Shown in pieces: positions 24,012 through 54,985 of a stretch of 64,000 nucleotides of DNA (position 1 is its first letter; the number at the start of each line of letters is the position of its first letter). The notes under the pieces were generated by a model. It ran no database searches. It was given only the letters and a program-made list of their open reading frames with translations, and was not told the DNA's origin. Position numbers and translations under genes: made by a program. Origin of the DNA: an uncultured virus (IMG/VR IMGVR_UViG_2740892251_000001) (Duplodnaviria; Heunggongvirae; Uroviricota; Caudoviricetes); IMG/VR virus record IMGVR_UViG_2740892251_000001; one strand, given 5' to 3'.

Positions 24012-24013
24012 TG

Positions 24014-24304: not shown

Positions 24305-24308
24305 CTCC

Positions 24309-25391: not shown

Positions 25392-25401
25392 TCATATCTC
25401 C

Positions 25402-27180: not shown

Positions 27181-27215
27181 GCTGAGTCCTCTTTATGGTT
27201 TAATCGGTGGTGGTG

Positions 27216-29604: not shown

Positions 29605-29615
29605 GTCATCCTCCG

Positions 29616-31172: not shown

Positions 31173-31741
31173 TTGCCTAATACCTCGCTTTGCTGTTGCT
31201 GTGCGGCTGCCTCCCATTCGTCAGCGCTGTTACAGGTTGGGACTGGCATAATGTTGTGAGTTACAGAGCCGGATTGCTCAATTTGTTCTTTGAACGCCAG
31301 AACACTGATGTGCTTACCCATTAACTCAAGGTTTTTTACCTTATTCGGCCATTTAATCTTCTTCAGGATATTCTCAATGGTGGTTTCATCGAAGTTGGTA
31401 ATCGATGTATTGATATCAAAACCACTGAGTGTTGTGCGCCACACCTTCGGCCATTCAGAGATGGGTTTAATTCCACCGTCATCATTCAGAATATCTAATA
31501 CATCCATCCGGTCGATTTCGACGAGCCTATTTAAGACATAAGCCGCATTTATGCCAACCAGATCATTGCGTTGAGCTTTCAGTTCGGCGATTCTGTTTTG
31601 GATGTCAAGTTTTGACAATAATTGCGCGGCGATGCGGTTTGCAGTCTTTACGCTGTACCCCGCCCGAATAGCCGCTTGTGTAGCGTTTAAATCGATGAGG
31701 TACTCGCGACAGAACATTTCTTGTTTGTCGGTGAGTGCCAT
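31169..31741 (-). CDS. Terminase small subunit
   Basis: LTDKQEMFCREYLIDLNATQAAIRAGYS. Confidence 0.95.
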   Translation of the reverse strand: MALTDKQEMFCREYLIDLNATQAAIRAGYSVKTANRIAAQLLSKLDIQNRIAELKAQRNDLVGINAAYVLNRLVEIDRMDVLDILNDDGGIKPISEWPKVWRTTLSGFDINTSITNFDETTIENILKKIKWPNKVKNLELMGKHISVLAFKEQIEQSGSVTHNIMPVPTCNSADEWEAAAQQQQSEVLGK

Positions 31742-31763
31742 TTAGTTATCCAAGAGTTTAAAT

Positions 31764-32198
31764 ATGTCTGAGATTAATAAGCGATCTTCAAAGAGTGCAG
31801 GTGATGCTAGCGAATATTATGTAGCTTACATGCTTTCTAGATTGGGCATCAGTGCCGCTCTAACCACTAGTGGTTCAAGTGCGGTGGATATCATTGCTAC
31901 CATTGATGGCTCAAAAAGCATCAGCATACAGGTAAAAGGATCATGGGCACGGTCACAGCCTAGGCAATGGATGGTAGGGAAAAAACGCCCGCACTCCTCC
32001 GATACGCTATTTTACGTTTTTTGTAATGTATCTGAAGATATTATGAACCCTAGAAATCCGGAAGTGTTCATTGTGCCAAGCAAAGATGTAGATGATTTAT
32101 CAAGTTGGCACCATCAGGTTCCACTATTCAAAGTATCTTCTGACAGAGAAGGGCTTTATTCTGATAAATGGACTTTAATTGAAAAGGCACTTCGTTAG
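31764..32198 (+). CDS. PD-(D/E)XK-family nuclease moron
   Basis: G..SEYYV...L...G, VDII, ISIQVK. Confidence 0.7.
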   Translation: MSEINKRSSKSAGDASEYYVAYMLSRLGISAALTTSGSSAVDIIATIDGSKSISIQVKGSWARSQPRQWMVGKKRPHSSDTLFYVFCNVSEDIMNPRNPEVFIVPSKDVDDLSSWHHQVPLFKVSSDREGLYSDKWTLIEKALR

Positions 32199-32287
32199 CA
32201 GGAACCAACTCAATGTGAGGCCTGAACTCATTAACGAATGATAATGGCGGATATGGCCGCTTCATTTGTAAGTCTGAGTTAGCCATA
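32199..32287 (-). pseudogene. N-terminal remnant of a phage putative metallopeptidase gene
   Basis: MANSDLQMKRPYPPLSFVNEFRPHIELVPANEV runs into the 3' end of the nuclease gene. Confidence 0.45.
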
Positions 32288-32447
32288 ACAGAATATTCCG
32301 CTGGTTGGTAAAGTCTCAGCCGCTGATTGGCTGATACCTCGATATGTGAAAACATCTATAAGATTCTGTCAAAGGCACTTCATGAACACCTTTTGCCGAG
32401 TTTTATAAATTCGGTATGATAAAAAACCGCCCAAAGGCGGCGAGGAA

Positions 32448-32666
32448 TCAGTTACTTGATAGCCATTGAATGGCTTTTTCCATCTGTTTTAACGCGTTAG
32501 CTTTTGCTTCTCGCTTTATATCAGCAAGTGTTGTCTCAGGAGTTACCGAGAAACGCAGATAAAAGCTAATGTTTTCCACATTCATATCATTGGTATAAAT
32601 CGTTACTTCTACGCAAACCGCCATATCGTCATTTACAGGGGTAATGCTCCCAAATTCGATGTCCAT
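32448..32666 (-). CDS. Small hypothetical protein
   Basis: 72-aa ORF with AAGGA RBS and downstream terminator 32421..32441. Confidence 0.6.
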   Translation of the reverse strand: MDIEFGSITPVNDDMAVCVEVTIYTNDMNVENISFYLRFSVTPETTLADIKREAKANALKQMEKAIQWLSSN

Positions 32667-32926
32667 TGCTTATCCTTGATAATTCAAACAAATCAGCTTT
32701 TTATACTGAAGAACTTTCAGAGGTAAGTAAAATCATTATCAAGTACCTGACACGTAGAGACATCAAGCCAGCCTGGTATGCCGATTCGATGGCCTCCCAA
32801 TCTGGTTTAGCCATTTACTATTCCTTTTGTCGTTATAAATCTTTGTGAAGCGCCATTGTGGTGACGCTTGGCAGAGTTTTATAAATAGCATCCAATAAAA
32901 AACCGCTCGGAGGCGGCTTGTGATGA

Positions 32927-33220
32927 TTACCTGACGCAGTATCTAATGCTGTACAACACACTTGGTCCGAAGCTCACTATCAGTGATGCGAGGATCCCGC
33001 AGATACTGGAAATGCGAACACCAGAAGCCGTTAAATAGTCAAACAAAGGAGTCCCGAAAATAACGGCGTACTGTAGAGCAGTGAAAGCAAGAATAAGTAC
33101 CAAAAAAAGCAGCGCACTTTTCAGCGTGAAGAATATCCATTCTCTTATCCCGAGTCCGATATACCCATTGCGCCTAAACGCCCCTTTGTAGTCCCTTATG
33201 AACTTTGCCATGCCTTGCAA
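32927..33220 (-). CDS. Small 2-TM membrane protein
   Basis: Two hydrophobic segments; terminator 32897..32917. Confidence 0.55.
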   Translation of the reverse strand: MQGMAKFIRDYKGAFRRNGYIGLGIREWIFFTLKSALLFLVLILAFTALQYAVIFGTPLFDYLTASGVRISSICGILASLIVSFGPSVLYSIRYCVR

Positions 33221-33312
33221 CCTTGAGCTTAAATCGTTCCTTATAATTGCATAGATTGTCTGTTATTGGGTATCTACTGAGAGCCGTTGTGACAGTGCTT
33301 CCCAATTTGCAA

Positions 33313-33573
33313 TCATGTTTTCCTCCCAACGTTCTGCCGCCAGTCGATAACCTCATCAAGCCGACCTTTGCAGATTCGTAGTTCCCGCTTTAACTCCATC
33401 GCGTACAATCCGCCATCTCCCCAGGTAATACCGGTAAATTCTGGAACCTCACAAGGGGTAAGTGCTGACTCTGGGGGCAATAATAAAACGGGTTCGGTAA
33501 CAAGCGGTTTAACGGGCTTATTCGCGCATGACGTTAATGGCATCATCAGGCATAGGCTTGATAGCACAATCAT
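33313..33573 (-). CDS. o-spanin (Rz1-like lipoprotein)
   Basis: Lipobox LTSC, Pro-rich, overlaps the i-spanin gene. Confidence 0.85.
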   Translation of the reverse strand: MIVLSSLCLMMPLTSCANKPVKPLVTEPVLLLPPESALTPCEVPEFTGITWGDGGLYAMELKRELRICKGRLDEVIDWRQNVGRKT

Positions 33574-33850
33574 CACTCGCCGCTGCTGCTTTAAACCGTG
33601 CAACCTGTAATTCACTTTCATTGCGTAGTTTCCTTTCGTTCTCTAGCTGGCGGGTTGTGGCTACACGGTTGGCGGCGTCATTCACCTGGTATGCATCAAT
33701 GATATTTCCCAGTGCCGTGTTTGTGGCTTGCTCGGCCACCAGCTCCGCTTCCGTTTTTTCGACCTGATTTGAGAGGCGGTAACTGTTAAAGAACAGGGCC
33801 GACACAACCACCACCAGCACTGCAATGACTAATCCAATGGCCTTATTCAT
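33518..33850 (-). CDS. i-spanin (Rz-like)
   Basis: N-terminal TM, coiled coil, C-terminal DCA..PMP. Confidence 0.85.
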   Translation of the reverse strand: MNKAIGLVIAVLVVVVSALFFNSYRLSNQVEKTEAELVAEQATNTALGNIIDAYQVNDAANRVATTRQLENERKLRNESELQVARFKAAAASDDCAIKPMPDDAINVMRE

Positions 33851-34376
33851 CCAGCCCCCAACAGGTCAGTTCGCTCTCCTGTGCGCGGCGTTCTATCTGC
33901 CCGTAACAGTTATTTGAGCGAATATTGCAATCCTTGCCGCCGTCATATACCCAGAGTTTGATCTCAGCGCATGCACCTTTACGGTCGCCAGCGTTGAGTT
34001 TTTTATAGAACGTGGAGGTGAAACATTTACTTGGGCCGATGTTATAGGGGCAAAACGACGCGATACCGGCCATCTGTGGTTCAGTCAGCGCTACCCGGAC
34101 ATTCTTCTTTACCCAGCTTATGGCCTTGTCAGCCTCCAGCTTATTTACCGCAGCGCATTTCTCCACTGACAGCTTCATTCCTTTCACTACCGGTTTACCA
34201 TCGACTTGAGTCGCACCACGGCAAATAGTCCAAATCCCCTTTCCATCTGGATAAGCTACCAGCCGGTTACCCTCTTTCTCATCCAAAAGCTGATCAAAAA
34301 TCATGGTGGCCGGTGCTGCAACCATAATCAGAGCCAGGACAGCCGCGCTTAATTTGCTTTTTGTCGAGGCCATCAC
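33843..34376 (-). CDS. SAR endolysin (T4-type lysozyme)
   Basis: SAR hydrophobic N-terminus; EG..LVAYPDGKGIWTICRG catalytic triad. Confidence 0.95.
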   Translation of the reverse strand: MMASTKSKLSAAVLALIMVAAPATMIFDQLLDEKEGNRLVAYPDGKGIWTICRGATQVDGKPVVKGMKLSVEKCAAVNKLEADKAISWVKKNVRVALTEPQMAGIASFCPYNIGPSKCFTSTFYKKLNAGDRKGACAEIKLWVYDGGKDCNIRSNNCYGQIERRAQESELTCWGLDE

Positions 34377-39522: not shown

Positions 39523-39738
39523 TATCATCACCCTCTGGCTTGGTTACTGCATTATATTTCCCCTGCCACTCTAAACATTCCCGTTCGTAGTGCTTTGCTG
39601 TGCGCCGGTTTTATTGGCTGAGGCCACCAGCTCCGCTATACGATCAGCAATACTGTTTAGCACCTCACTTTCACGCGGTTCCACTCTCTCGGCCGCTGAA
39701 CGAATTGCAGCAATCATGCCATCGGTTGAAATATTCAT
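39515..39738 (-). pseudogene. Small gene with probable 1-nt deletion in an A-run (~39610)
   Basis: MNISTDGMIAAIRSAAERVEPRESEVLNSIADRIAELVASANK stops at 39571; the shifted frame ends TAA overlapping the next ATG. Confidence 0.5.
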
Positions 39739-39986
39739 TTGGTCTCGCCTCTGTGGTCTCTACGGTCACGCCAGTAATTTAAGCGCTGTTTAAAAAATTC
39801 CCGATAATGCACCGGTACCCGTTCAATCGCTTCCAGTACGTGGGCGCGGTGGGTTCTACGCTCGTATAGGTTTTTGATTAAGCCGCTGACTCTCAGATCA
39901 AGATTCTGTTTGTCCTGATATTCCTGAGGCCAGAGGCAAATGTTGTACGGGAGTCCGGGCGGGAGATAATCCGATTGCCCGACCAT
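39735..39986 (-). CDS. Hypothetical protein
   Basis: Coupled ORF; MVGQSDYLPPGLP. Confidence 0.7.
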   Translation of the reverse strand: MVGQSDYLPPGLPYNICLWPQEYQDKQNLDLRVSGLIKNLYERRTHRAHVLEAIERVPVHYREFFKQRLNYWRDRRDHRGETK

Positions 39987-39988
39987 GG

Positions 39989-40411
39989 TTACGCCCTCGA
40001 CTCAGCCGCCAGGCGTTTCATGATGTTGGGTTCGCTGGGGAGTGGCCCGGCTTTTACTTTGTTGAGTAGTTCCAGTCTTACCGGGGTATCTGCTTTAAGA
40101 ATGTGCTCAACTCTATCCAGTGGCATTTTTAGCATGACTGAAATACGTTGCGGGGAACGGCCAAGGCGCTGTAATTCATAAATACAGGTCATAACGCGGC
40201 GACCATAGCTAATACGGTTGCCGATTTTCACCATAGCACCATGTTCAATGACAGGTTCAGCCACCTTATCCAGCTTTGGTGCGGGAACATATGGGACACG
40301 CAGACGAGCGCGAGCTGCTTGATTGATACGATCAATTATTGCCGGGCCGTGGTCGCAGCCATCGTCAATTACCGGACGTTTTTCATTGATGTATTCATTG
40401 ATTGTATGCAT
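39989..40411 (-). CDS. Hypothetical protein with possible HTH
   Basis: LQRLGRSPQRISVMLKMPLDRVEHIL; GAGG RBS. Confidence 0.7.
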   Translation of the reverse strand: MHTINEYINEKRPVIDDGCDHGPAIIDRINQAARARLRVPYVPAPKLDKVAEPVIEHGAMVKIGNRISYGRRVMTCIYELQRLGRSPQRISVMLKMPLDRVEHILKADTPVRLELLNKVKAGPLPSEPNIMKRLAAESRA

Positions 40412-40454
40412 GGTCTTGCCTCTTTGGGTTAGTTCACTCGCTGGTCAGGCGCGA

Positions 40455-41828
40455 TTAAAATTTAGGTGTTGAATAACTCTTTTCTTTGGCCGGTGGCCTT
40501 GATGCCTCTTTCGCTATTCGGCTGGCTTCCTTTGCCACCAGCTGATCCACCGGCAGAAAGTGGCCGTTTTTAAATTCCTGATAAACGGTGCCGGGCTCGC
40601 CAAATCGGTTCTTGGTTACAATGGCCTCGGCAAATCTGGCCGCCGGACTATCGGCGTTATAAACCGCCTCTCGATACAACATAATGATGCTGTCAGCATC
40701 CTGCTCGATTGAACCGGAGTCTCTGAGATCGGAACTGATGGGCCTGCGGCTACCCGGTGGCCGTTCATCCACTTTGCGTGATAACTGGCTAAGGGCAAAA
40801 ATCGGGGTATTTATTCGACCGGCCAGTGTTTTTAAGCCGCGTGAAATGATGCCGACTGATAGATCATTACGCTCCGCCTTGGGTTTGGTAATCAGGCCAA
40901 GATAATCAACCATCACCATTCTTAATTGTGGGTACCGGCGCTTGTGTGTTTCGGCGATAGCCCGTATCTGATCGATGGTCAGTTCGCTGGCATCAACAAT
41001 CCAAATATCACGGCCATTCAATGCCTGTAGTGCGGAGTTAATGCGCGCCCAGTCCTCATCACATAAGGTTTTAGGGTCGCGCAATTTTGATACTGGCAAA
41101 TTACCGGCCCCGGCAACGGAACGCTCTACCATCTGTAGGGAAGCCATTTCCATACTGAATATCAGCGCCCCGCCGCCGTTCTGTGTGGCTCCCTCAACAA
41201 TCTTCAACGCAAACTCGGTCTTACCCATCCCCGGACGCCCGGCGATAACCACCAAGTCCTGCGGGTTAAAGCCACCGGTGATGGCATCCAGCTCAACTAT
41301 GCCGCTTTGCAGGTTCATTGACTCAATTTCACCATTCATGCGCTTATCCAGCATGTCCATATAGCCGGGCAATAAGTCATTTAGATGCACCGGGATAATG
41401 CCGCCGCTATCTGCCGTCATATCAATTAGCTGTGTTACCGCGCCCTGTATCACCTGATCGCGCTGTTCCTGATTGTTCGCCCCTCGGATGCCGTCAGCCG
41501 CGGTCTGAAATAATGCGGTCATGGTGCGGCTATACCAAATCTTACGGGCATAGGCGGCATAGCCTTTCAGGTTTGCCACGTTGCCCGGCATACGGACAAT
41601 TTCAGATAGCGTAGCCAGACTACTACCGCCCAGCGCCTCACTGACGAACAGGACATCGATCATCCCTTTGGTCAATGCCTGCTTTTTAATTTCCGCATAG
41701 GCAGAACGATAAATCCTGATGCTAAATGCCTCTTCCGGCAGAGTGGCAATAACCTCCAGCGCATCAGGGGTTGAGCCGCCATACAGCAGGCCGGATAGAA
41801 TGGCGGCTTCTAACTCTTGAGGTTTCAT
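40455..41828 (-). CDS. DnaB-like replicative helicase
   Basis: AGRPGMGKT, FSMEM, VDYLGL, LSQLSR, DLRDSGSIEQDAD, KNRFG. Confidence 0.96.
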   Translation of the reverse strand: MKPQELEAAILSGLLYGGSTPDALEVIATLPEEAFSIRIYRSAYAEIKKQALTKGMIDVLFVSEALGGSSLATLSEIVRMPGNVANLKGYAAYARKIWYSRTMTALFQTAADGIRGANNQEQRDQVIQGAVTQLIDMTADSGGIIPVHLNDLLPGYMDMLDKRMNGEIESMNLQSGIVELDAITGGFNPQDLVVIAGRPGMGKTEFALKIVEGATQNGGGALIFSMEMASLQMVERSVAGAGNLPVSKLRDPKTLCDEDWARINSALQALNGRDIWIVDASELTIDQIRAIAETHKRRYPQLRMVMVDYLGLITKPKAERNDLSVGIISRGLKTLAGRINTPIFALSQLSRKVDERPPGSRRPISSDLRDSGSIEQDADSIIMLYREAVYNADSPAARFAEAIVTKNRFGEPGTVYQEFKNGHFLPVDQLVAKEASRIAKEASRPPAKEKSYSTPKF

Positions 41829-42801: not shown

Positions 42802-43026
42802 TCAGATCCCCAGCGCTGCGGCTATTTGCCGACAGGCAGACTGATAATCGTCGGGCGATAGATTCATCAGGCACAGGTCAGCTTTCTTCTGCTCGTACTG
42901 CTCCCACACGCTATATGCGGCTACCTGACGCCCGGCAAAAATAGGGGCGATGTCAGCCATACTTGCCGGTTGGCCGTTAAGCCGGAATCCGTTGCGCCAG
43001 GTGATTTTGTCGATAGATGTAAGCAT
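42802..43026 (-). CDS. Hypothetical protein directly upstream of the initiator
   Basis: 74 aa with GAGG RBS; stop 2 nt before the initiator ATG. Confidence 0.75.
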   Translation of the reverse strand: MLTSIDKITWRNGFRLNGQPASMADIAPIFAGRQVAAYSVWEQYEQKKADLCLMNLSPDDYQSACRQIAAALGI

Positions 43027-43042
43027 TGGTCTTGCCTCTGTT

Positions 43043-43507
43043 TTATACGGTGGTCAGCCGGTGGTGTTGTGGTCTGATTGCGTGAAGTGCCGCAACAGCG
43101 CCCGATATTCTTTGTGACATGTCACAGCCATCTAATAGAACCGCGCTAATTGCTGCGGCAAACTCTCGGCTGGCAATCGAAACCAAATAATTCACGGTCT
43201 CGCCATTCACCCTGGCCCGCCGTTCTGCCGGGAGTGCCGCTTTAAGTACCGGTGATAATTCCAAGACCTTGCGCATTGATGCTTTTGAATCCCCGCGCAG
43301 CCAACGAAATAACTGCTGCCGGTTGTTGTTAATAGACTTCCAATCAGCGCCGCCCTGCCCGTTTTCAATGGGAGTGAGACGAACTGAACCGGTGTTGATA
43401 TTGAGCAAGAAAAAAATTCTGCTGATCTCGATAGCTACATGCTCCTGCCCCCGCTCTGCCGCCCACGCCTGAACTTCGGCTTTAAGCGCTTTGATTTCTT
43501 GTTCCAC
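43043..43507 (-). CDS. CII-like regulator (YdaT-type)
   Basis: Position after cro; WAAERGQ..VA.EI, NRQQLFRWL. Confidence 0.75.
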   Translation of the reverse strand: MEQEIKALKAEVQAWAAERGQEHVAIEISRIFFLLNINTGSVRLTPIENGQGGADWKSINNNRQQLFRWLRGDSKASMRKVLELSPVLKAALPAERRARVNGETVNYLVSIASREFAAAISAVLLDGCDMSQRISGAVAALHAIRPQHHRLTTV

Positions 43508-43567: not shown

Positions 43568-43753
43568 TTAGGCTGCACTTCGATACATAGCGGGGTCATA
43601 TTTCAGTTCGCCATGAGTCATGCGTTCAATCTTCATTGCCTGTTTCTCAGGGATAATTGCCCCCCAACGGCAAACCGCTGGGTGCTTTATGCCTAAGGCC
43701 GTGGCGGTATTCACTACCCCACCAAAAAACTTGACGACATCTTTCTTGTTCAT
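43568..43753 (-). CDS. cro: Cro-like repressor
   Basis: VKFFGG..TATALGI..PAVCRWG..IPE. Confidence 0.9.
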   Translation of the reverse strand: MNKKDVVKFFGGVVNTATALGIKHPAVCRWGAIIPEKQAMKIERMTHGELKYDPAMYRSAA

Positions 43754-43780
43754 AGGAACTCCTTGTTTAACTCAGGATGA

Positions 43781-43847
43781 AAGGTAACAAAAGGTACATG
43801 ACAATGCAAACACTTTTCACCTCACTATGGCGTAACATTGGTTACAT
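43781..43847. promoter_or_regulatory. OR operators and pR
   Basis: GGTAACAAAAGGTACAT and CGTAACATTGGTTACAT; minus-strand TTGCAT-17-TACCTT. Confidence 0.65.
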
Positions 43848-44508
43848 GAAAAATGAAATGAATGACCGCATCCGTCTTCGCAGACTGCAGCTAGATCTCA
43901 CACAAGTCCAGTTAGCCAAAGCTATTGGGGTGAGCCGTGTATCAGTGACAAAATGGGAGTCAGGAATCACTAAACCAGATGGGGAGAATCTTCACCGGCT
44001 GGCGCAAATACTTTCATGCACGCCAGAGTGGTTACTCTATGGTACCGGAGATTTACGTCAGGTTGACGATACAAAGATAAAGCCCCTCGTCGCAACGCCT
44101 AATGCCATACCTGTTATCTCATCCGTTCAAGCCGGTGCCTGGACAGAAACCTACTCCGCCGCCCGTATTTCTGATGTTCTTAGATGGTGTAACACCACAG
44201 TGAAGGTTTCTGAAAACGCATTTGGGTTGGATGTTCGGGGTGAATCAATGACCAACCCCAACGGTTCTCCCTCTATCCCCGAGGGGTCTACCGTTATCGT
44301 AGAACCTAATTATGGTTCTATTGATGATTTGTACGGTAAAATAGTGGTCGCCATTATTGATGGCAGCTCCGAGGCCACCATTAAAAAGTTAGTTATTGAT
44401 GGCCCCAACAAATACCTAATGCCTTTAAATCCCAATTTCAAACCCATTGAAATCAACGGCAATTGCCGTATTCTCGGTCGCGTTGTTCAGGTCACCCAAG
44501 ACCTGTAA
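43846..44508 (+). CDS. cI: CI repressor (HTH + S24 autopeptidase)
   Basis: HTH LTQVQLAKAIGVSRVSVTKWE; VQAG cleavage site; GESM and TIKKL; ATG at 43846 may be leaderless. Confidence 0.95.
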   Translation: MKNEMNDRIRLRRLQLDLTQVQLAKAIGVSRVSVTKWESGITKPDGENLHRLAQILSCTPEWLLYGTGDLRQVDDTKIKPLVATPNAIPVISSVQAGAWTETYSAARISDVLRWCNTTVKVSENAFGLDVRGESMTNPNGSPSIPEGSTVIVEPNYGSIDDLYGKIVVAIIDGSSEATIKKLVIDGPNKYLMPLNPNFKPIEINGNCRILGRVVQVTQDL

Positions 44509-44513
44509 TCAAT

Positions 44514-44539
44514 AGCCCATCCCCCTGATGGGCTTTTTT
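44514..44539 (+). terminator. cI terminator
   Basis: AGCCCATC-CCCCT-GATGGGCT-TTTTT. Confidence 0.85.
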
Positions 44540-44549
44540 ATGCCTCTAG

Positions 44550-44604
44550 ATGTAACTATTAGAACACTTCCTTATTGACACAAAAGGTAACTATAGGTAC
44601 ATTC
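44550..44604 (+). promoter_or_regulatory. pL promoter with OL operators
   Basis: TTGACA (44575)-17-TACATT (44598); operators TGTAACTATTAGAACA and GGTAACTATAGGTACAT match the OR motif. Confidence 0.8.
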
Positions 44605-44631: not shown

Positions 44632-44695
44632 TGCGAACAGGCAGGACGCCCACGAAGTAGCTGCCGGTGGCATACGAAACACCGGATGATTCGCA
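44632..44695 (+). ncRNA. Structured pL leader RNA (multi-stem junction)
   Basis: TGCGAA/TTCGCA closing stem, GGC-AGGAC-GCC and CCGGTG-GCATACGAAA-CACCGG. Confidence 0.5.
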
Positions 44696-44750
44696 AGTTT
44701 AGGTTTAGTACGTTCTGGCAGCTGGGAAGACAGCACCAAATTACAGACGT

Positions 44751-44870
44751 AAAAAAACCCACCGAAGTGGGCTTCTTTACCCCGGATCACCGACCAAAGT
44801 TAACCGGGAATTGCTAACGGGGACCAACCCGTTAACAGAGGCAAGACCAACGGCTTACGCCATCGACCTT
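44751..44870 (-). ncRNA. Candidate multi-target antisense sRNA
   Basis: Four hairpins with GUAA, UUGGUC, UUUGGUC and UUCG loops, U7 tail, extended -10 upstream; complementary to RBSs of early genes. Confidence 0.75.
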
Positions 44871-44876
44871 AAAATT

Positions 44877-44885
44877 AGTATATCA
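44877..44885 (-). promoter_or_regulatory. Extended -10 promoter for the sRNA
   Basis: Minus strand TG-A-TATACT, about 7 nt upstream of the first hairpin. Confidence 0.65.
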
Positions 44886-44894
44886 GGAGTTGCT

Positions 44895-45230: not shown

Positions 45231-45285
45231 TTAGCCCTACATCAAAGACCAAGATCCGTTTAAAAAACAAAGAGGCAAGACCAAC

Positions 45286-47487
45286 ATGACTGTATTTATT
45301 TGCTTATTCGAGCCGAAAAAAGCGGCTGTCAAAAATGGGGCTATCCCATTGGTTATAGCGCTGGAAGCTATCAATAAGAAAATGGCATCCGCACTGGCCA
45401 TCGCTAAATTGTGGGAAGCCTACCCAGCCGCTGGCGATAACTTTGCTGATCCGAAAATCTGTGAGGATACCGTCGGGCAACCGCGCCCTGTGGTTGGTGA
45501 GTTCGACGAACAGTTCGCACAGGAGAATACTTTTGATGGCAAAGTATGGACGCCAAATACTGCGGCATTGTCAGAAGATGATGATGATGAGAACGACGAC
45601 GAACCCGCTGATGATGCCCGTTTAGTGAACTACGCCAAACTGGGCATCGATGTCAAAGTTGGCAAAATCCTAATGTATGACTTACGTGACATCGATACGC
45701 ACGAACTATCACTGGTATATGACCTGGTTAACGACGATGAGGGTGATGCCGGGCTACGTTCCATTATAACCGCGTTAGCAGGCATACCGGCTATAGGAGC
45801 AATGTACCAAGAATCAGTCAAAGAGCTGATCGACGCTATCAATATGAAATTCCCGAAAACACCTCAATTCCCAGAAGTTCGAAAATTCGCTCAAAAATGG
45901 GTTGATGAACCTAATAAGCGGGACGAGTTAACCGGAGCGAAAAAAGTCACCCGCATAGATACACCGGCCCCTGATGCGCCAATTAAACGCAGCTTTGAAC
46001 ACACATATAAAACGCTTGATCTCGAAGTTGCCCTCGCCCTGGTACCGGCTGATTTTAACTGCTGGGAAATCCATTCAGCAGAAATGAAGCAAGCAAAAGA
46101 GTTGATGGACAGTAATGATGATGCCTGGCGCAAATGGTCAACCGAATTACGCGTTCGTAGTGATGCGTTGTCTATTCCGCGTGAAACTATCTTTGAGATC
46201 ATTCGCGTGGGTAAAAAGAAACCTATCTTCCTGACCAATGCCGCCGCCAGAAAAGAATTTATCGCACAATGTATCGCCGTCAAAGGGCCACAGCCTGCGG
46301 TTAAAAATTTGGGGGACGGTAAGTTCTCTATTGATGGTCTGGTCGGTGGTGAACCCCAACCGGCGGCAAACAGTGAAACAAAACTGGCACTGGTTGCCAA
46401 TTCTGAGCCAGAAACTGAAACAAAACCGCCAATCGTTGCAACAGAACAGGAAAACCCCGCACAGGAACCCATCACCGATAACACCGCTCAACAGGCTAAA
46501 GAAACCCTAGAACAGTTGGGTTACAGCGTTTATGCCTCGGCTGATGAGAAGCCGGCAGAGGTTATTGATACGGCGCAACCAAGCACGGTTGCTAGCGTAG
46601 AAGTTACTGTTGATGAGTTCCAACACCGTGCCGGGTTGATTGAGCAAGAGATTGCGCAGAAGTCCCCTCAGGAACAAGAAAACCTGCATATCTGGAAATC
46701 GGTACAACGCACCGATCCACGCTTTACCAAACCTGTAGAGGGCGCGGGATATGTCGCTACCAGCATTAACGCTGAATATATGTTTATGCGGGCCACAGAA
46801 GTATTCGGCCCCATCGGTGAGGGTTGGGGCTATACCATTCTTGAAGAAAAGATGCTGCCAGGCGCGCCAATGTCCGAGGCTATTTACGACGATAACAAGA
46901 AATACATTGGCAACCGGCTTATTCGTGATGCCGATGGCACATTGATATGCGAACAAAATCACTCAATCAAAATTCAATTCTGGTATTCAATTGAGGGAGA
47001 AGTACGTGGCGAGATCGAAAGCTACGGAGCCACCCCTTACATGTATAAAACCAATAAAGGAATTAAGGCTGATAACGAGGTAATCAAAAAAAGCCTCACG
47101 GACGCCATTAAGAAAGCGCTATCTATGCTGGGCTTTAGCGCTGACGTATGGCTCGGCATGCACGATAACCCCGAATATATAGCAGAAAATAACATTGAGT
47201 TTGCTATCAAAAATGCCAGTGAAAAAGCCGGTGACTCCGTTCGCCTGCGCAAAGAGCTGGATGAGAAATTAACCAAAGTCGGCAATACCATTTCGAATGC
47301 CGTTACCACCAATGAAGTGAATAAGATATATAGCACCATTACGCGAGAAATCGACGTACACCGCAAAGATGCCGACGCCAAAGCTGACAAAGAATACGCC
47401 AATTACCTCAAAAACCGCCTGCTTGCATTACATCGCTTAACCGAACAACGGGTTGCCAAACTTAACGCACAGGAGCAAACAGCATGA
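45286..47487 (+). CDS. RecE-like N-terminal region fused to a Rad52/Sak-like annealing domain
   Basis: HTYKTLDLEVALAL (RecE N-region-like); RATEVFGPIGEGWG and KKSLTDAIKKALSMLGFSADVW (Rad52/22-like). Confidence 0.7.
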   Translation: MTVFICLFEPKKAAVKNGAIPLVIALEAINKKMASALAIAKLWEAYPAAGDNFADPKICEDTVGQPRPVVGEFDEQFAQENTFDGKVWTPNTAALSEDDDDENDDEPADDARLVNYAKLGIDVKVGKILMYDLRDIDTHELSLVYDLVNDDEGDAGLRSIITALAGIPAIGAMYQESVKELIDAINMKFPKTPQFPEVRKFAQKWVDEPNKRDELTGAKKVTRIDTPAPDAPIKRSFEHTYKTLDLEVALALVPADFNCWEIHSAEMKQAKELMDSNDDAWRKWSTELRVRSDALSIPRETIFEIIRVGKKKPIFLTNAAARKEFIAQCIAVKGPQPAVKNLGDGKFSIDGLVGGEPQPAANSETKLALVANSEPETETKPPIVATEQENPAQEPITDNTAQQAKETLEQLGYSVYASADEKPAEVIDTAQPSTVASVEVTVDEFQHRAGLIEQEIAQKSPQEQENLHIWKSVQRTDPRFTKPVEGAGYVATSINAEYMFMRATEVFGPIGEGWGYTILEEKMLPGAPMSEAIYDDNKKYIGNRLIRDADGTLICEQNHSIKIQFWYSIEGEVRGEIESYGATPYMYKTNKGIKADNEVIKKSLTDAIKKALSMLGFSADVWLGMHDNPEYIAENNIEFAIKNASEKAGDSVRLRKELDEKLTKVGNTISNAVTTNEVNKIYSTITREIDVHRKDADAKADKEYANYLKNRLLALHRLTEQRVAKLNAQEQTA

Positions 47488-47984: not shown

Positions 47985-48029
47985 TTTCATCCCGCCCCAA
48001 ACCAACGGGGCATTACTGAGGCAACACCC

Positions 48030-48212
48030 ATGCTAAAGCGTACTCACAAACGCGGTGAAAAGTCCTATATCACGCTCCCCGATGGACGAACGGGAACTAT
48101 CCACACTGATCGCCGTTGTGATGTTCACTACGATTTTCCGGTAGATGTTCGAATTAGCAGCACTCCACCGCAGAAAGCACCCGAAAAATTGATTTTGCAT
48201 AATCAGAAATAA
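48030..48212 (+). CDS. Small protein, possibly CsrA-like fold
   Basis: ML..T.K.GE...I.......P.DVRI pattern; GAGG RBS. Confidence 0.55.
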   Translation: MLKRTHKRGEKSYITLPDGRTGTIHTDRRCDVHYDFPVDVRISSTPPQKAPEKLILHNQK

Positions 48213-48261: not shown

Positions 48262-48468
48262 ATGCAGCCATGGCAACCGGGCAAGCGCCTATTAACCGAG
48301 TTCGATATTAAGATCGGCAAGTTATCAGCCAGCGTACGGAAACAACAACTCACCGACCACGATATACAGCGGGCCTGTTCTGCGACCGACAGAGCAATAA
48401 CCCAAATGATACAGGGGCAAGACCATGAAAAACGACCACGACATAATCACCAAAGAGGAGATGATTGA
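48262..48468 (+). CDS. Hypothetical protein
   Basis: MQPWQPGKRLLTEFDIKIGKL; operon position. Confidence 0.6.
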   Translation: MQPWQPGKRLLTEFDIKIGKLSASVRKQQLTDHDIQRACSATDRAITQMIQGQDHEKRPRHNHQRGDD

Positions 48469-48661
48469 GTTGACCGGTCATCACTACAAAACCAAACAAT
48501 GTGACTCTTTACGCCGCTCGGGGATCTTTTTTATCCGACGTCCGGACGGACACCCGAAAACCACTTGGGGCCATTTTTTGAATCCAGTCAGTTTGCGCGG
48601 TAAGCCGCTGGATCCGGAAAAAGAAGAACCCAATTTCGAGGCCATGAACAGTGGCCGGTAA
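48425..48661 (+). CDS. xis: Excisionase (DUF4224-like)
   Basis: ITKEEMIELTG...KQC..L...GI.F..RPDG.P..TW...EPNFEAM; overlaps int. Confidence 0.85.
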   Translation: MKNDHDIITKEEMIELTGHHYKTKQCDSLRRSGIFFIRRPDGHPKTTWGHFLNPVSLRGKPLDPEKEEPNFEAMNSGR

Positions 48662-49697
48662 ACGCAAGAACGCCGCAGACACGGCATTACCACCTCGGGT
48701 GTATCGTGGAAAATCGAAATATGAATTCCACCCCGCCCGCGGTGGCTCAATATCGCTATGCCCATTGGATGCACCTATTTCTCAAGTATGGTCATGCTAC
48801 GAAAAAATAAATAATGAGCCATTAGAAAAAGCCAACTTGAATAAACTCATTGAACAGTTTTTCCGCTCTGTTGATTTTAATGAGTTAGCTGTTGAGACGC
48901 AGAAAGACTACCGCAAATATTCACTTAGAGTATTACCAGTTTTCGGGAAAATGGAACCAGACAACATAAAACCTGAACATATCAGGAAATATATGGATAG
49001 ACGCGGGATCGCCAGTCGAACACAGGCAAACCGAGAGAAAACTTTCCTATCGCGGGTTTATCGTTGGGGATATGAGCGGGGAATGGTAAAAGGCAATCCA
49101 TGCAAGGGGGTTAAGCAATTTAAAGAGGTTGGCAGGGAACGATACATCACTAACGCTGAATATAGCGCTCTCTACAACGTAGCTCCGCCGATTGTAAAAG
49201 CGGCAATGGAACTCGCCTATCTTTGTTGTGCTCGGCAAGCAGACATCCTCGCCTTAAAAAAGTCACAGCTAATAGATGCCGGGGTATTTATACAGCAAGG
49301 GAAAACAGGAAAGAAACAGATCAAGGCATGGACGGAAAGATTACAGCAGGCCATCAAAATTGCTGATGGAATAGAAATCGCTCCAGGTGTGAGCAGTATT
49401 TATGTACTGCATCAGCGATCTGGGCATGGCTACACAAGAGATGGTTTCAATAGTCGGTGGCGCAACGCAAAATTATTGGCTGCAAAAACATTTCCCGAAT
49501 TGAATTTTGATTTCACGTTTCATGATTTAAAGGCAAAGGGAATATCCGACTTAGAGGCAACACTCGAAGAGAAGCAAGCTATTTCAGGGCATAAGAATAC
49601 GGCTCAAACAGCCAGATATGACCGGAAAACAGAAATCGTGCCAGTGGTGGGGGGCAGAAAAAGTGAGTTTTTATTCAGATTACCAAAATCATGTTAG
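48651..49697 (+). CDS. int: Tyrosine integrase
   Basis: ANREK, CARQADIL, FHDLKAK, SGHK, RYDR; adjacent to att. Confidence 0.93.
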   Translation: MAGKRKNAADTALPPRVYRGKSKYEFHPARGGSISLCPLDAPISQVWSCYEKINNEPLEKANLNKLIEQFFRSVDFNELAVETQKDYRKYSLRVLPVFGKMEPDNIKPEHIRKYMDRRGIASRTQANREKTFLSRVYRWGYERGMVKGNPCKGVKQFKEVGRERYITNAEYSALYNVAPPIVKAAMELAYLCCARQADILALKKSQLIDAGVFIQQGKTGKKQIKAWTERLQQAIKIADGIEIAPGVSSIYVLHQRSGHGYTRDGFNSRWRNAKLLAAKTFPELNFDFTFHDLKAKGISDLEATLEEKQAISGHKNTAQTARYDRKTEIVPVVGGRKSEFLFRLPKSC

Positions 49698-50356: not shown

Positions 50357-52497
50357 ATGGAACTATTACAAGAAGTTGGAGCTATAGTTAAAATTGTAAT
50401 TATGCCTACACTCGAAGAGCAAACTTATTTTCAGGGTTTTGATACTGGGATTACCCATCCTGATGTTGCTGAGATTCTTTTGCTATTAAATAAAACACCA
50501 AAAAATATAAAGGAAATATTTATTCAGAATGAGGCCCAGTCAATAAATAGGCTGGAAACACTAAACCCGATAATTCTCATCTCAAAAGAAAATATCGATA
50601 ATATATATTTGACTTTCCGAAGTTCTTTCTGTTTAATTTTTTGCGTTAGAAAAGATTTTTCATTTTCAAAAGATTTTTCTAAATCTTTTGAAATTCCTCC
50701 TATTATATGCTGCGATGTTAAATCTGCTGATATACGACCTTGTGAAGTAAATAGTATCTTTTCTTTTGATAAGTTGCTTTTCTCACGACTTAAATTAGTT
50801 GAGAAAAAATATAATAAAATTAATCCAGAAATCAAAGTTTCTGGAAAATTAAAAAGAAGAGGTGCGTTTTTTAAAAAAACAACATGGAGCTCCACTCTCA
50901 ACAATACTACTCTGCCTAACGAACTGCTTATTGAATCGTTAGGTTTTATGCTCTCACCCTCAAAAAAAATTAAAGATGGAAGTAGTAGGAGAGAGTTTAT
51001 AAATCACATCATAGAAAGTGTTTCTGCTTATAATGATTGTTTGGAAAAATTAGGGAAAATACCATCATCTGAAATTATATTGTATACCCCTGGTATGTTT
51101 TCCTTCTTGCATAATAAAGATAGCGAAATTTTCAAACTTCTGAGGAAGAATTAGAACTGGATGAAAAACGGTTTTTAATCAGTGGGGTTTTAAGGAATCC
51201 AGATTATTCAGGAATTAGGTTTATTTTTGAAAAAAAGAAAAATAAATTATCTAGGATTTTAAAAAATCCAAAGGTAAATTATTTGTGTTCTTTGAGGATA
51301 GCTGAAATGCGCCTTACCACTGCAGCAATTTCATTATTGAGTTCGAATAAAGACTCGCCATCGATTAGATTACCTAACGAAATAAATCATTGTAGTAGTC
51401 ACCTAAGAAAACTGGAAACGTTAGCTAGTACCTTTGGAATAAACGATCCAGTTTTCTTAAAAAAAGCTAAAGCATTCAATACTATTACAAGACGAATTAT
51501 TGGCCCTAAAATTAGGACTTACATTAATGATAATTATAATGATATATCCTTCGTTAGTGATATTCCATTAGACTGGATTAGATTTGATAATATACCGATT
51601 ATGTTTAGCCATGAAATTTCAAGGATTAACGTCACTCCAGGCAATATTCTTTTACAGAATGCATCTTCATTTCCAAGAACTACGATTAAAAGCTCTGAAC
51701 TAAAAAAAATCTTAGTTATACGTTCTTTTGAGCCCGATGATCCACTCAAATTTTTTTTAGAGATTGCCTTGGAAGTTTTTAAAGAAAACATGCCGGACCT
51801 CAAGTGTGAAATCGTAGATGTCAGGTCAAAAGGTGAACTAATTGATGCATTAAATCAATATAATGGATACATCCTTATAATGGATTGTCACGGAGATCAT
51901 GGCGGTGATACAGATAATGGATGGTTAGTAATCGGAGATGAAAAAGTTGACACGTGGCAATTGAGAGAGAATGCTAGGGTACCGCCTATTGTTATTCTCA
52001 GCGCCTGCTTAACATCTGCACTTAGTGGCTCTCATGCATCAGTGTCAAACGGATTCATGGTTAGTGGAGCTTTAAGTGTTATTGGTACATTATTGCCAGT
52101 AAATGCCTTTGATTCAGCAGTTTTTGTTAGTCGACTCGTATATAGATTTTATGAATTTCCATCAGTTATCCCTAACCATTATACTCATGTCAATATGAGA
52201 CTTTTTCTTTCATTATTCCTTAGGATGTCTTATGTGACTGATTTGATGCGCGGTTTTGAGCGGGAGGGTTTTTTGTCCAAGGATTCATGGCAAGATGAAC
52301 ATGTTAAGATAAATACTTACATAAATATGTTAAATAGTGATTGGTATCATTATACGATTACTTCTCTTGCTAAGCTAACTAAGCTAAATGAACAAGAAGT
52401 GAATGATATTATAGAAAGCAAATTATTCATAACTGAGACTATGTGTTATAGTCAAATCGGAATGCCTGAGTCAATAACAATTATTATACAGGAATAA
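50357..52497 (+). pseudogene. CHAT (caspase-like) protease gene split by a frameshift near 51145
   Basis: ORFs 50357..51154 and 51283..52497; the second frame is open from 51124; catalytic DCHG and LSAC motifs. Confidence 0.75.
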
Positions 52498-52908
52498 TTT
52501 TCTATGAGTGTTTCCCATTATAACCTATCTGAGCCTTGCTATATAAATGCTAATCACTTCTTTTTTCAGTATCTATACACTCAATATTTGTGAAGCACAA
52601 CCATTAAAAAATGGCGGAGTTTTCATTACTAAACGTCCCTTACAATCCAGAGAAATACTATTAACAATAGTAGGCAGCTCATTGAACGGTGAGTGTAAAG
52701 CAACTCTATTCCATAGTTGCTAGCACAGCTGCAAATTATCAAGTGATTTTGGTGTCAATATCCGCCTTTCGCTCGAGGCCGTCAATTGTCTCAGTGCTGA
52801 TGTTTGATACTGAGTTGCTGACCGGCAGCACGCCTACGCATTTGTGCGACATACTATAGCCTCATTAGTGGACTTTTGGTATAAGAAACCTGCAAAAGTG
52901 GGTTGTTG

Positions 52909-53646
52909 TTAATAAGTTTCTAGTTTTATTTTACTGTTTATTTCTGATGTTGGAATGGGGAAAGCTATATCTCTCAGACTTTCAACATTGAAAAAATATG
53001 CATCTTCGGTTCCCTTACCTCTGTCTAAGCAAAGTCTAAACTCACTCTGATGCTCATACTCCTTTTGCTTATGAAAAACCGCATCCGCTGTATTTTCAAG
53101 AGAAAGAGATTCATTACTATCATAATAAATTAACTTCCTTGCTGAAAAATAATTCGCCTCATTACTATCAATCAAAGATTGTGCTGCCCTTTTAATACGA
53201 GAAATAAATTCAGGAATATTAGGTATTATTACAGCATAGGCCCCTAAGTTTAAAGATTCTTCCGGCATTTTAAAATACCCCCTGACCTGCTCTATTTGCT
53301 CTTCAGTAAGCAACTCATTAATACTAAATTCATGTGAATGTAGAACAGTTAAGCAAAGCACATTGTAACTGTCGTGGTTATTAGTTCTAATAATAATTGG
53401 ACCTAAAATATCTTTTTCAGTTATGATAATTTCATCCATTCCCGGGGGATGTATGATAAGACGTAACCCTTTTGGCTGCAGCCAAGCAGTCACCGCTTCA
53501 TTCTTATCCCCAATATTGTTATTTTTTTCCTCCTCGTACTCTTTAAAGTATTTAATGGTGTTCATGTAAAGTTTACCATCGAGAAAATCTTCTCGGTATT
53601 TTTCGGTGGAAAATACCTTCACTAAAAAACCGTATCCATCACTCAT
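52909..53646 (-). CDS. Hypothetical AT-rich cargo protein (DUF2971-like motif)
   Basis: FLDGKLYMN...YF...GDKNE; HKQKEYEHQSEFR. Confidence 0.7.
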   Translation of the reverse strand: MSDGYGFLVKVFSTEKYREDFLDGKLYMNTIKYFKEYEEEKNNNIGDKNEAVTAWLQPKGLRLIIHPPGMDEIIITEKDILGPIIIRTNNHDSYNVLCLTVLHSHEFSINELLTEEQIEQVRGYFKMPEESLNLGAYAVIIPNIPEFISRIKRAAQSLIDSNEANYFSARKLIYYDSNESLSLENTADAVFHKQKEYEHQSEFRLCLDRGKGTEDAYFFNVESLRDIAFPIPTSEINSKIKLETY

Positions 53647-53953
53647 TATAGCCTCCTGATAAATTTTATTATCATCTATAGGTCTTCATTCGGGTTTACT
53701 ATGGTTTCTTTCATTTTCAAACCTTTTGACCATGTCGGTATTATGAAGCTGACGAATATACTATTCAGGTATTCGCTGTTTGAATATCCAATGCCCACTT
53801 TTAGCTGACTGTCAGATTTTATCGTATCTTGCTACAAAACACAGTCAGTAACCCGCGAGAACTAGATATTCCAACGACATCATGATTCGTTCTTTGGACA
53901 CAGTTATTACAAAAACTACCAGCCCTTTTATTCGTCATTATATTCTCACATTA

Positions 53954-54985
53954 TTAATTTTTCGAAATGCGATCATAAGGATTCAAACTCACTGCCGCTT
54001 CTAAATGATCCGGGGCAAAGTGGCTATAGCGCATGGTCATTTGGATAGTGGAGTGCCCGAGGATTTGTTGTAGTACTAATATGTTGCCGCCGTTCATCAT
54101 AAAATGACTGGCGAAAGTATGCCGTAGAACGTGGGTTAACTGGCCGGTAGGTAACACCAGTTTAGCCCGGTCAATGGCTTGGCCGAATGCGTCATAGGCA
54201 TTGGCGAATAAGCGCCCTTTCATCTTTGGAATCAGTTTATGCAGTTCCGCAGAAATAGGGACTGTACGGTTCTTTTTACTCTTGGTGTTGACATAAGTAA
54301 TTTTGTTTGGCATCACCTGAGCTTGTCTTAATTGCTCCGCTTCGCTCCAGCGTGCGCCGGTGGCCAGACAGATACGAACAATGATACCGAGATCTTTATT
54401 GCTGGAATTGTCACACTCATGCAGCAGGTGCTTAATATCATCTTCATAAAGAAAAGTTAATTCGTTTTCACTTTCACGAAATAACCTGACGCCATCCAGC
54501 GGATTCGCATGATTCCAATGCCCTAGCCTTTTCAACTCATTAAAGACAGCTCGCAGATATGCATGTTCGCGGTTAACAGTTGCCTCTTTTGGCGGTTTAA
54601 CGATTCCGTGTTTTGACTTACGACTAAACTCACCGGCTAAGCGCTGCTTGCGGTATTTGGCGAACACTTCCCGGTCAAAATCAGCAACAGCAGGATCTCC
54701 CAAGTTATCACACAGGATATTGAGTTTATCTAGTCTTGCTTTGCCGTCACTCAAAGAGCGCCCGTGGAGTTCATACCACTGACCAACCAATGTTTTTAAC
54801 CTCTGCGCAGCAGTTTCTGCCGGTGTGTAGTTAATATCCAGATCACCACGTTGCGCTAACTGCTCACGTTCAAAGCGCAACGCCTCGCCGCGAGTAACAA
54901 AGGTTTTCCTAACCCGCTTACTGTCACGGCCATCTGAGTAAAAATCACAGACCCACTTCCCATTGGGTAATTTCCGTACTGCCAT
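53954..54985 (-). CDS. int: P2/186-type tyrosine integrase
   Basis: TGARWSE, KSKKNR, HVLRHTFASHF, LGHS, MRYSH. Confidence 0.96.
   Translation of the reverse strand: MAVRKLPNGKWVCDFYSDGRDSKRVRKTFVTRGEALRFEREQLAQRGDLDINYTPAETAAQRLKTLVGQWYELHGRSLSDGKARLDKLNILCDNLGDPAVADFDREVFAKYRKQRLAGEFSRKSKHGIVKPPKEATVNREHAYLRAVFNELKRLGHWNHANPLDGVRLFRESENELTFLYEDDIKHLLHECDNSSNKDLGIIVRICLATGARWSEAEQLRQAQVMPNKITYVNTKSKKNRTVPISAELHKLIPKMKGRLFANAYDAFGQAIDRAKLVLPTGQLTHVLRHTFASHFMMNGGNILVLQQILGHSTIQMTMRYSHFAPDHLEAAVSLNPYDRISKN

Follow-up and report, generated by a model that had tools for sequence, protein, structure and literature searches.

A candidate RNA gene opposite the early-left leader

A stretch of 64,000 nucleotides from an uncultured virus of the Caudoviricetes (IMG/VR record IMGVR_UViG_2740892251_000001), hereafter called the window, was analysed with respect to a small RNA gene predicted on its minus strand. 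The window contains a lambdoid prophage whose early region is inverted compared with the usual map, with an early-right (pR) arm on the minus strand and an early-left (pL) arm on the plus strand (Table 1). A strong predicted promoter, TTGACA-17-TACATT, is read as pL with its operators, and between it and the ATG at 44895 stretches a leader of about 290 nt, within which the candidate RNA is encoded on the opposite strand. The original prediction described positions 44751-44885 as a candidate minus-strand antisense RNA that would cover the ribosome-binding sites (RBSs) of many lytic genes and thereby provide a second layer of immunity. The hairpins, the tetraloops, the terminator with its U7 tail, and the -10 box were all present exactly as it had claimed, and UUGGUC indeed occurred three times in the RNA (GACCAA on the plus strand at 44792, 44822, and 44845).

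From its 5' end, the RNA comprises hairpin 1, the linker GCCUCU, hairpin 2, hairpin 3, and an intrinsic terminator, and its -10 box sits 6 nt ahead of the first A of hairpin 1. A two-hexamer consensus scan of the window did not list this promoter on the minus strand because its -35 element is poor. Relatives were collected with loop patterns. The hairpin-3 loop pattern retrieved 76 viral loci, consisting of 27 that resembled the window (type A), 44 that resembled the Salmonella RNA IsrB and had a short 5' end (type B), and 5 chance matches, and the hairpin-2 loop pattern retrieved 59 loci and added type C. Types A and B had the same layout, in which the CAT of the first gene and the complement of its Shine-Dalgarno (SD) sequence are followed by the -10 box and the RNA. 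Furthermore, a -10-like hexamer (TATACT, TATAAT, or TAAAAT) was located at most 40 nt upstream in all 24 distinct relatives, where it adjoined the sequence complementary to the SD and ATG of the first gene. The 5' arm of hairpin 1 was variable (GGUC/GAUU, GAUGGC/GGUGGC/AAUGGC) with its pairs preserved, and the stem of hairpin 2 was wholly different between lineages with its loop preserved.

The minus strand folded at -61 kcal/mol (z = -5.80), and none of 200 shuffles was as good. A covariance model built on 28 sequences (R1) scored the window RNA at 131.8 bits. Pairing was tested on 28 aligned relatives with the structure of hairpins 2 and 3 and the terminator specified by hand; 99.0% of the 672 cells could pair, and 11 of the 24 pairs were compensatory. 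None of 500 shuffles reached any of the five pairing measures, and sliding the partner by 1-3 columns lowered the pairing to only 37-53%.

These hairpins might nevertheless belong to the plus-strand pL mRNA leader, for example as an attenuator or a terminator read through early, without a separate RNA gene. The plus strand also folded better than its shuffles (-36.7 kcal/mol, z = -3.04), and, as a point against the minus-strand assignment, the consensus scan listed the terminator hairpin on the plus strand only (tail CTTCTTTA) and not on the minus strand. Because of this listing, the terminator may be bidirectional; its U7 tail belongs to the minus strand. However, as the original prediction had argued from the G-U pairs, 81 G-U cells turn into A-C mismatches on the plus strand, so that the pairing of hairpins 2 and 3 and the terminator decreased to 86.9% in the opposite-strand reading; hairpin 1, in 13 type-A sequences, was 100% paired on the minus strand versus 66% on the other. 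The U7 tail and the conserved -10 hexamer likewise point to the minus strand, as does the homology to IsrB, which is described as a mapped antisense transcript (PMC2330248). A mere plus-strand leader structure is therefore very improbable, and the minus-strand RNA gene is, on this pairing evidence, very probably real. Lying opposite the predicted pL transcript with its own promoter and terminator, it has, at the level of the sequence only, the attributes of a cis-encoded antisense RNA.

A shared cassette at early-gene starts

The RNA contains an anti-cassette segment, hereafter the seed, which is complementary to a cassette that reads (A)GAGGCAAGACC(N0-3)ATG in the mRNA sense and stands before six early open reading frames (ORFs) on both arms. 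The complementarity to early-gene starts on both arms, on which the original prediction was based, was recovered as exact matches of 17 nt (43026-43042), 15 nt (45271-45285), and 13 nt (40411-40423) and as matches with one mismatch of 16 nt (39739-39754) and 15 nt (48411-48425), all of which were antisense to an mRNA and directly ahead of an ATG. When up to one mismatch was allowed, the 12-mer occurred six times, always within 39.7-48.4 kb and never in the late region, against about 0.3 copies expected by chance according to our own arithmetic. Several of the cassette genes head runs of adjoining or overlapping genes, namely the 74-aa gene with the replication and helicase genes, the exonuclease gene with a Gam-like gene that overlaps it by 4 nt, and the excisionase gene with the integrase gene. 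The description of the targets as excision, recombination, and replication genes is thus a fair summary, although replication is touched only indirectly, through the 74-aa gene.

Among the 28 aligned relatives, UUGGUCUU-CCU was invariant, and the probability of being unpaired was 0.9-1.0 for the GCCUC / CUUGCCUC core in most lineages. An invariant seed with an accessible core, matching six ORF starts in the window and three to seven per relative, is what would be expected of a trans-acting RNA. In 43 distinct translation initiation regions (TIRs) of exonuclease genes, the cassette was nearly invariant, the upstream flank could not be aligned, and the first codons differed. The GACCAA with which the cassette ends at the start codon has UUGGUC as its complement, and UUGG conforms to YUNR, a U-turn loop motif of antisense RNAs.

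A second AAGACCAA motif was observed at 45247-45252 on the plus strand, 24 nt upstream of the exonuclease cassette, and was conserved in type-A TIRs; an RNA carrying UUGGUC three times thus meets two GACCAA sites on the exonuclease mRNA. The idea that other cassette genes are faced by antisense RNAs of their own was also considered and rejected, as the weak R1 matches there (21-27 bits) were the seed without structure.

The seed and the cassettes varied together. Among 59 loci, one of which was untypable, the 28 loci with a G-type RNA had C-cassettes at 153 of 156 gene starts (a loose pattern accounts for the three exceptions), and the 30 loci with a U-type RNA had A-cassettes at all 120; no phage with mixed variants was found among these 58 loci. 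Two distant members, Pectobacterium phage ZF40 and one E. coli prophage, had the same order of repressor, leader, small gene, and exonuclease. In ZF40, GAGGCAAGACC was exact at five genes and had one mismatch at a sixth, and in the E. coli prophage, with the seed GGUCUUUCCUC, the cassette GAGGAAAGACC occurred at three annotated gene starts, once just after ydaT, and in two leader copies. The original prediction had called for covariation within the RNA and with the RBSs of its targets, and both were observed, the latter as one switch only.

Co-occurrence was examined by a scan for the cassette, which yielded at least 177 stretches, 78 loci with flanks, and 24 contigs with two or more exact copies. 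All 24 multi-cassette contigs carried the RNA (the R1 match was inside the locus in 23 and just outside it in 1), and single-copy loci were mostly chance matches of a 15-mer. Type-B phages lacked the cassette (0/44) and their RNAs the seed; in these phages no complementarity of 13 nt or more to the RNA was found within 3 kb, and GACCAA was not enriched (1.84 per 10 kb per strand versus 6.5 in type A).

The cassette could instead serve something other than this RNA, as the binding site of a phage protein that recognises RNA, as an optimised ribosome site, or as a linker for recombination between gene modules, with the RNA finding its targets elsewhere, for example in host mRNAs as for other prophage small RNAs. 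Leader hairpins with GAAAGA/GGAAGA loops resemble the cassette core, ignore the seed variant, and look protein-binding (boxB-like), and the single evolutionary switch is equally expected from module exchange within two phage clades. Moreover, IsrB is reported to be associated with ProQ and to have no known target (PMC5391140). Against this stand the co-occurrence of the RNA with multiple cassettes in 24 of 24 contigs, the lack of a mixed-variant phage among the 58 loci, and the position of the seed in a single-stranded linker; we also judge identities of 12-17 bp to be short for frequent homologous exchange. We consider this explanation improbable.

The original prediction overlooked a seventh copy of the cassette, which lies in the pL leader itself and is followed by ACG instead of ATG. 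This copy carried ATG in 2 of the 27 type-A loci (L021 and L045) and ACG in the rest, and its frame is open into the first pL gene. In other lineages, its start codon was ACG, ACA, ATA, or ATG, the last opening mini-ORFs of 8-34 codons; the leader cassette was thus conserved while its start codon was not. Type-C and type-D leaders contained one to three additional copies, which tracked the seed variant.

This leader copy bears on the alternative of an RNA that acts only in cis on the pL leader and the first pL gene, by promoter occlusion, collisions, or cleavage of the long duplex, in which case the other matches would be a by-product of a relic cassette or a former start codon. Such cis action was missed by the original prediction and is at least as well founded as trans action. 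The complementarity between the RNA and the leader is perfect, and the SD of the first pL gene directly adjoins the -10 box of the RNA. IsrB-type relatives stand at the same place without cassette or seed, the occasional in-frame ATG of the leader copy looks like a decayed upstream start, and the duplex energies are unremarkable at most trans sites. A relic, however, should decay, whereas the leader cassette is invariant despite its changing start codon and tracks the variant of the gene cassettes. UUGGUC is also preserved in two loops across lineages with entirely different stems, which counts against purely cis action because partners in cis that are complementary throughout do not depend on any given loop sequence. 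A role in trans as well as in cis was favoured because the seed and the two UUGGUC loops are invariant though the stems are wholly replaced, and because the start-less leader cassette is kept and the co-occurrence is strict; action in cis alone is a serious but rather doubtful candidate.

Table 1 Positions of the RNA gene, the cassettes, and the surrounding early genes in the window.
Feature	Position	Strand	Remarks
Small RNA, ~120 nt	44751-44870	-	Start predicted at ~44870, end at the U7 tail
Predicted promoter, extended -10 TGaTATACT	44885-44877	-	Weak -35; from sequence
Hairpin 1, AAGGUCGAUGGC-GUAA-GCCGUUGGUCUU	44843-44870	-	Four G-U pairs; 3' arm GCCGUUGGUCUU within the anti-cassette
Anti-cassette seed GUUGGUCUUGCCUCUGUU	44834-44851	-	RNA nt 20-37; GCCUC part single-stranded
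Hairpin 2, exposed UUGGUC loop	44813-44836	-	9 pairs, 4 compensatory, 98% of cells paired
Hairpin 3, loop CUUUGGUCGGUGA containing UUGGUC	44781-44808	-	9 pairs, 5 compensatory, 99.2% paired
Intrinsic terminator GCCCAC-UUCG-GUGGGU + U7	44751-44772	-	6 pairs, 100% paired
Seventh cassette copy AGAGGCAAGACC, then ACG	44837-44848	+	pL leader; RNA seed is its antisense
Cassette + ATG, exonuclease gene	45271-45288	+	15-nt exact complement
Cassette + ATG, 74-aa gene	43024-43042	-	17-nt exact complement, E 3.6e-4
Cassette + ATG, 140-aa gene (39989-40411)	40409-40423	-	13-nt exact; phrog_4183, function not known
Cassette (1 mismatch, AGAGGCGAGACC) + ATG, 55-aa ORF (39571-39738)	39736-39752	-	Sequence match
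Cassette (1 mismatch, AGGGGCAAGACC) + ATG, excisionase gene	48413-48427	+	Sequence match
Weaker cassette (2 mismatches, TGAGGCAACACC) + ATG, 60-aa gene (48030-48212)	48017-48032	+	phrog_2482; alone within chance
DnaB-type helicase gene	40455-41828	-	pR arm; overlaps replication gene
Replication-initiator-like gene		-	pR arm; ATG 2 nt after the stop of the 74-aa gene
74-aa gene	42802-43026	-	pR arm; phrog_2465
CII-like/YdaT gene	43043-43507	-	pR arm
Cro-like gene	43568-43753	-	pR arm
cI-like repressor gene	43777-44508	+	HTH_3 + Peptidase_S24; own terminator 44514-44534
Predicted pL promoter TTGACA-17-TACATT	44575-44603	+	10/12 consensus matches; reads the RNA gene in antisense
First pL gene, 111 aa	44895-45230	+	phrog_2479, function not known; SD AGGAG 44884-44888 abuts the -10 box of the RNA
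Exonuclease gene, 733 aa	45286-47487	+	phrog_2489
Excisionase gene	48425-48661	+	phrog_1266 + Pfam DUF4224; overlaps integrase gene
Integrase gene	48651-49697	+	pL arm

Relationship to IsrB and other phage RNAs

A scan with the whole of Rfam matched isrB (RF01386) at 44752-44833 on the minus strand, with 38.4 bits against a gathering score of 35, a small margin. Model positions 1-87 of 87 were aligned, and the posterior probabilities were low in the 5' third of the model. The match spans the 3' 82 nt of the RNA, in which hairpin 3 (with high confidence) and the terminator fitted well and hairpin 2 poorly. The 5' 38 nt, containing hairpin 1 and the seed, were outside the match, and the whole RNA is thus not explained by the model. 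Consequently, the statement of the original prediction that the RNA belonged to no described family has to be restricted to its 5' module, as the 3' two-thirds match a curated family just above the threshold. No other Rfam family reached its threshold in the whole-Rfam scans, where rsmX, istR, and a CRISPR repeat stayed far below theirs. To our knowledge, Rfam contains a family for the C4 antisense RNA; no C4 match at threshold was obtained in these scans. The isrB model scored type B at 81 and 101 bits and missed six other anti-cassette loci at E <= 0.01, namely type C, type D, ZF40, L253, L247, and L248.

Salmonella IsrB is described as an 88/94-nt RNA of Gifsy-1 and Gifsy-2, antisense between sbcA and STM1010, that was mapped by primer extension and northern blot (PMC2330248) and is expressed in lysogens (PMC2330248, PMC7067206). 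No mechanism for it was found in the IsrB papers or in a 2025 review of phage small RNAs (PMC12197685). Both IsrB and the window RNA are antisense just upstream of the first early-left gene, with the promoter beside the SD of that gene (PMC2330248); the hairpin-3 loop CUUUGGUCGGUGA is identical and the terminator is of the same type. In contrast, IsrB is described as having one short 5' hairpin (PMC2330248), whereas the longer window RNA has hairpin 1, the anti-cassette seed, and hairpin 2 outside the model, and the cassette itself is missing from IsrB-type phages. By this match, the window RNA is a relative of a curated family of not-yet-known function. The family formed by the window RNA and its cassette-bearing relatives appears to be widespread in Enterobacterales prophages and so far uncurated, with its locus, hairpin 3, and terminator in common with IsrB and an additional 5' module.

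An R1 search added more lineages at 58-128 bits, whose hairpin-2 stems had no sequence in common with that of the window. Among GenBank phages, the window RNA was found only in ZF40 (two records), together with a 29-nt match in an Erwinia phage, and the type-C and type-D RNAs had no match there. In complete E. coli genomes, the window RNA was present in 1 of 5426 and the type-C RNA in 10 of 5426; no annotated feature lay under the RNA matches listed in E. coli RefSeq genomes. A pattern scan of a genome collection gave 71 matches versus about 69 expected by chance, 5 of which passed a terminator filter that may miss others. In an order-level sample, 7 of 151 genomes had a match at E <= 1e-4, strong only in the centre genome and weak in the other six. 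An identical copy of the RNA was found in a contig of Yersinia artesiana and near copies in Y. frederiksenii and Rouxiella silvae, from which we infer a host among the Yersiniaceae.

In ZF40, the annotated start of gp08 (2160-2648 of locus L150) extends the coding sequence over the whole antisense RNA gene, and the start homologous to that of the 111-aa gene of the window lies about 50 codons further into gp08. The annotation of ZF40 gp08 is probably over-extended.

Several known phage regulators are comparable. P4 CI, like C4 of P1 and P7, is a small structured immunity RNA that pairs near ribosome-binding regions; the C4 and CI RNAs are excised from the sense transcript of an operon under their own control and act mainly on one operon. 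The window RNA resembles them as a small structured phage RNA with an exposed sequence that could pair at or near lytic RBS regions, but it lies on the strand opposite pL, has its own -10 box and terminator instead of being processed from a sense transcript, and matches the cassette of six ORFs spread over the two early arms. Lambda OOP and P22 sar are short terminated transcripts opposite an early mRNA, and thus likewise cis-encoded antisense RNAs; they have one overlapping target, whereas the conserved seed and loops of the window RNA match repeated sequences of the genome. T4 RegA controls many early translation-initiation regions and is similar in that one phage-encoded factor addresses the ribosome-binding regions of many early genes, with the difference that RegA is a protein, whereas the factor proposed here is an RNA and its targets carry a near-identical sequence tag. 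RNA-layer immunity by pairing near lytic ribosome-binding regions has been described for C4 (PMC12197685). The arrangement of a seed and a repeated cassette was not found in the openly searchable literature, which leaves out subscription journals and preprint supplements, and a prior description is possible.

Proposed regulation and other features of the early region

On the sequence evidence, we propose, with a probability of about 0.5, that the RNA is a dual cis- and trans-acting antisense repressor of early-gene translation. It would be made from its own -10 promoter, convergent with pL, inside the early-left leader, with a 5' module consisting of hairpin 1, the anti-ribosome-site segment 5'-GUUGGUCUUGCCUCUGUU-3', and hairpin 2 with its UUGGUC loop. 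In the lysogen, where pL and pR are repressed, the RNA would accumulate, and the unpaired CUUGCCUC core would pair with the SD part of the cassette (A)GAGGCAAGACC(N0-3)AUG. Pairing would then spread into UUGGUC/GACCAA and open the weak, G-U-rich hairpin 1, so that the region from the SD through the start codon would be covered and translation blocked. The six cassette ORFs, which comprise the heads of the gene runs given above and three small ORFs, would thereby be silenced. In cis, the RNA matches the pL leader over its full length, and this leader carries one or more gene-less cassette copies; once induction sets in, transcription from the convergent pL and pairing of the RNA with the leader would switch off and titrate the RNA and free the cassette genes. 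Transcription in this host, repression, titration, and timing are what we infer from this arrangement.

Several observations weigh against this proposal. Because the RNA is antisense to the leader cassette, its complementarity to the other copies is in part automatic, and the co-variation is formally concerted evolution, in which the copies are held alike and the cause is not shown by it. When the seed was masked, a tree built on the RNA backbone needed one G/U change only, which counts as one independent event, though one in which 4-7 gene cassettes per genome were substituted in parallel. Hairpin 1 sequesters UUGGUCUU (probability of being unpaired 0.0-0.3) and leaves only 5-8 free nucleotides of the seed, and in ZF40 the seed GGUCUUGCCUU pairs with the SD through a G-U wobble. 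The number of 12-mer copies with at most two mismatches was 8, not above shuffles (mean 4.95, sd 2.2). Duplex energy lifted only the TIR of the 74-aa gene (-36.5 kcal/mol) above the best values of four shuffled seeds (-28.2 to -32.6 kcal/mol); the exonuclease site tied with them, and the other sites fell inside their range. When four sequencing runs were aligned, three covered only a 62-nt leader element (described below) and part of the terminator, with reads from other organisms, and the fourth covered nothing. Finally, the locus and hairpin 3 are retained by IsrB-type RNAs in phages that lack the cassette, so that the core role of the family may be purely in cis.

With regard to the original prediction, a structured minus-strand RNA gene with a mostly exposed segment antisense to early RBSs, including those of the excisionase and exonuclease genes, was retained from its interpretation as an immunity RNA, of which repression of translation, independence from CI, and action on superinfecting phages are putative parts.

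Lambdoid lysogeny is taught as a protein-repressor switch, and RNA layers are known mainly from P1, P7, and P4. If the proposed dual action is true, a genome-wide translational lock would be placed over the replication, recombination, and excision blocks, which would account for the identical SD-to-ATG sequence at unrelated early genes. It would also provide family context and a testable hypothesis for Salmonella IsrB, an expressed prophage RNA of not-yet-known function. A broader and more tentative generalisation is that temperate phages of Enterobacterales may tag the lead genes of their early blocks with a shared ribosome-site address, by which one antisense RNA would silence all of them in the lysogen, with the pL leader as a sponge on induction. 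The G:C and U:A types might then be RNA-level immunity groups comparable to P1/P7 heteroimmunity, and such RNA-defined groups are predicted. Annotators also gain a new covariance model; the Rfam model misses the six anti-cassette loci named above.

Other features of the pL leader were also observed. A hairpin, GCUG-GGAAGA-CAGC, is located at 44721-44734 on the plus strand, about 20-25 nt ahead of the terminator of the RNA. Relatives had GCCGG-GAAAGA-CCGGC at the same place, and the GAAAGA/GGAAGA loop was kept whatever the seed variant; the hairpin resembles a protein-binding hairpin of the boxB type. The type-C pL leaders (L154, L160, L156, L165, and L211) contained clusters of 4-6 GGAAAGA(C) motifs within 450 nt, some of which came after a full cassette and an ATG or GTG opening a mini-ORF of 8-34 codons, conserved in neither length nor sequence.

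A structured RNA element of 62 nt was found at 44633-44694 on the plus strand, about 25 nt downstream of the predicted pL start. Its closing stem and inner hairpin co-varied (10 of the 13 predicted pairs were compensatory in 14 sequences), and its stems enclose the invariant cores CCCACGAAGUAGC, GCAUACGAA, and GAUGA. Type-A and IsrB-type loci, ZF40, and 50 GenBank phage records (ST64B, SfV, SfII, phiNP, and others) contained the element, for which no Rfam match at E <= 1 was obtained. In other organisms, contigs break exactly at the edges of the element, and one contig omits it precisely. It may function in cis as a leader RNA, such as an antitermination element. The put RNA of HK022 was rejected as a sequence homologue, as no similarity to HK022 24000-34000 was found.

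On either side of the predicted pL -35 box, GTAACTAT occurs on the plus strand at 44552-44559 and 44586-44593; these repeats are likely operator half-sites for the cI-like repressor. Small genes also lie in the pL arm between the Gam-like and excisionase genes. Past the prophage integrase, the region 50357-54985 may be a separate island. It encodes two proteins, of 265 aa and 245 aa, for which no Pfam match was obtained, a protein of 404 aa that matched a CHAT domain weakly, and a second integrase (53954-54985).

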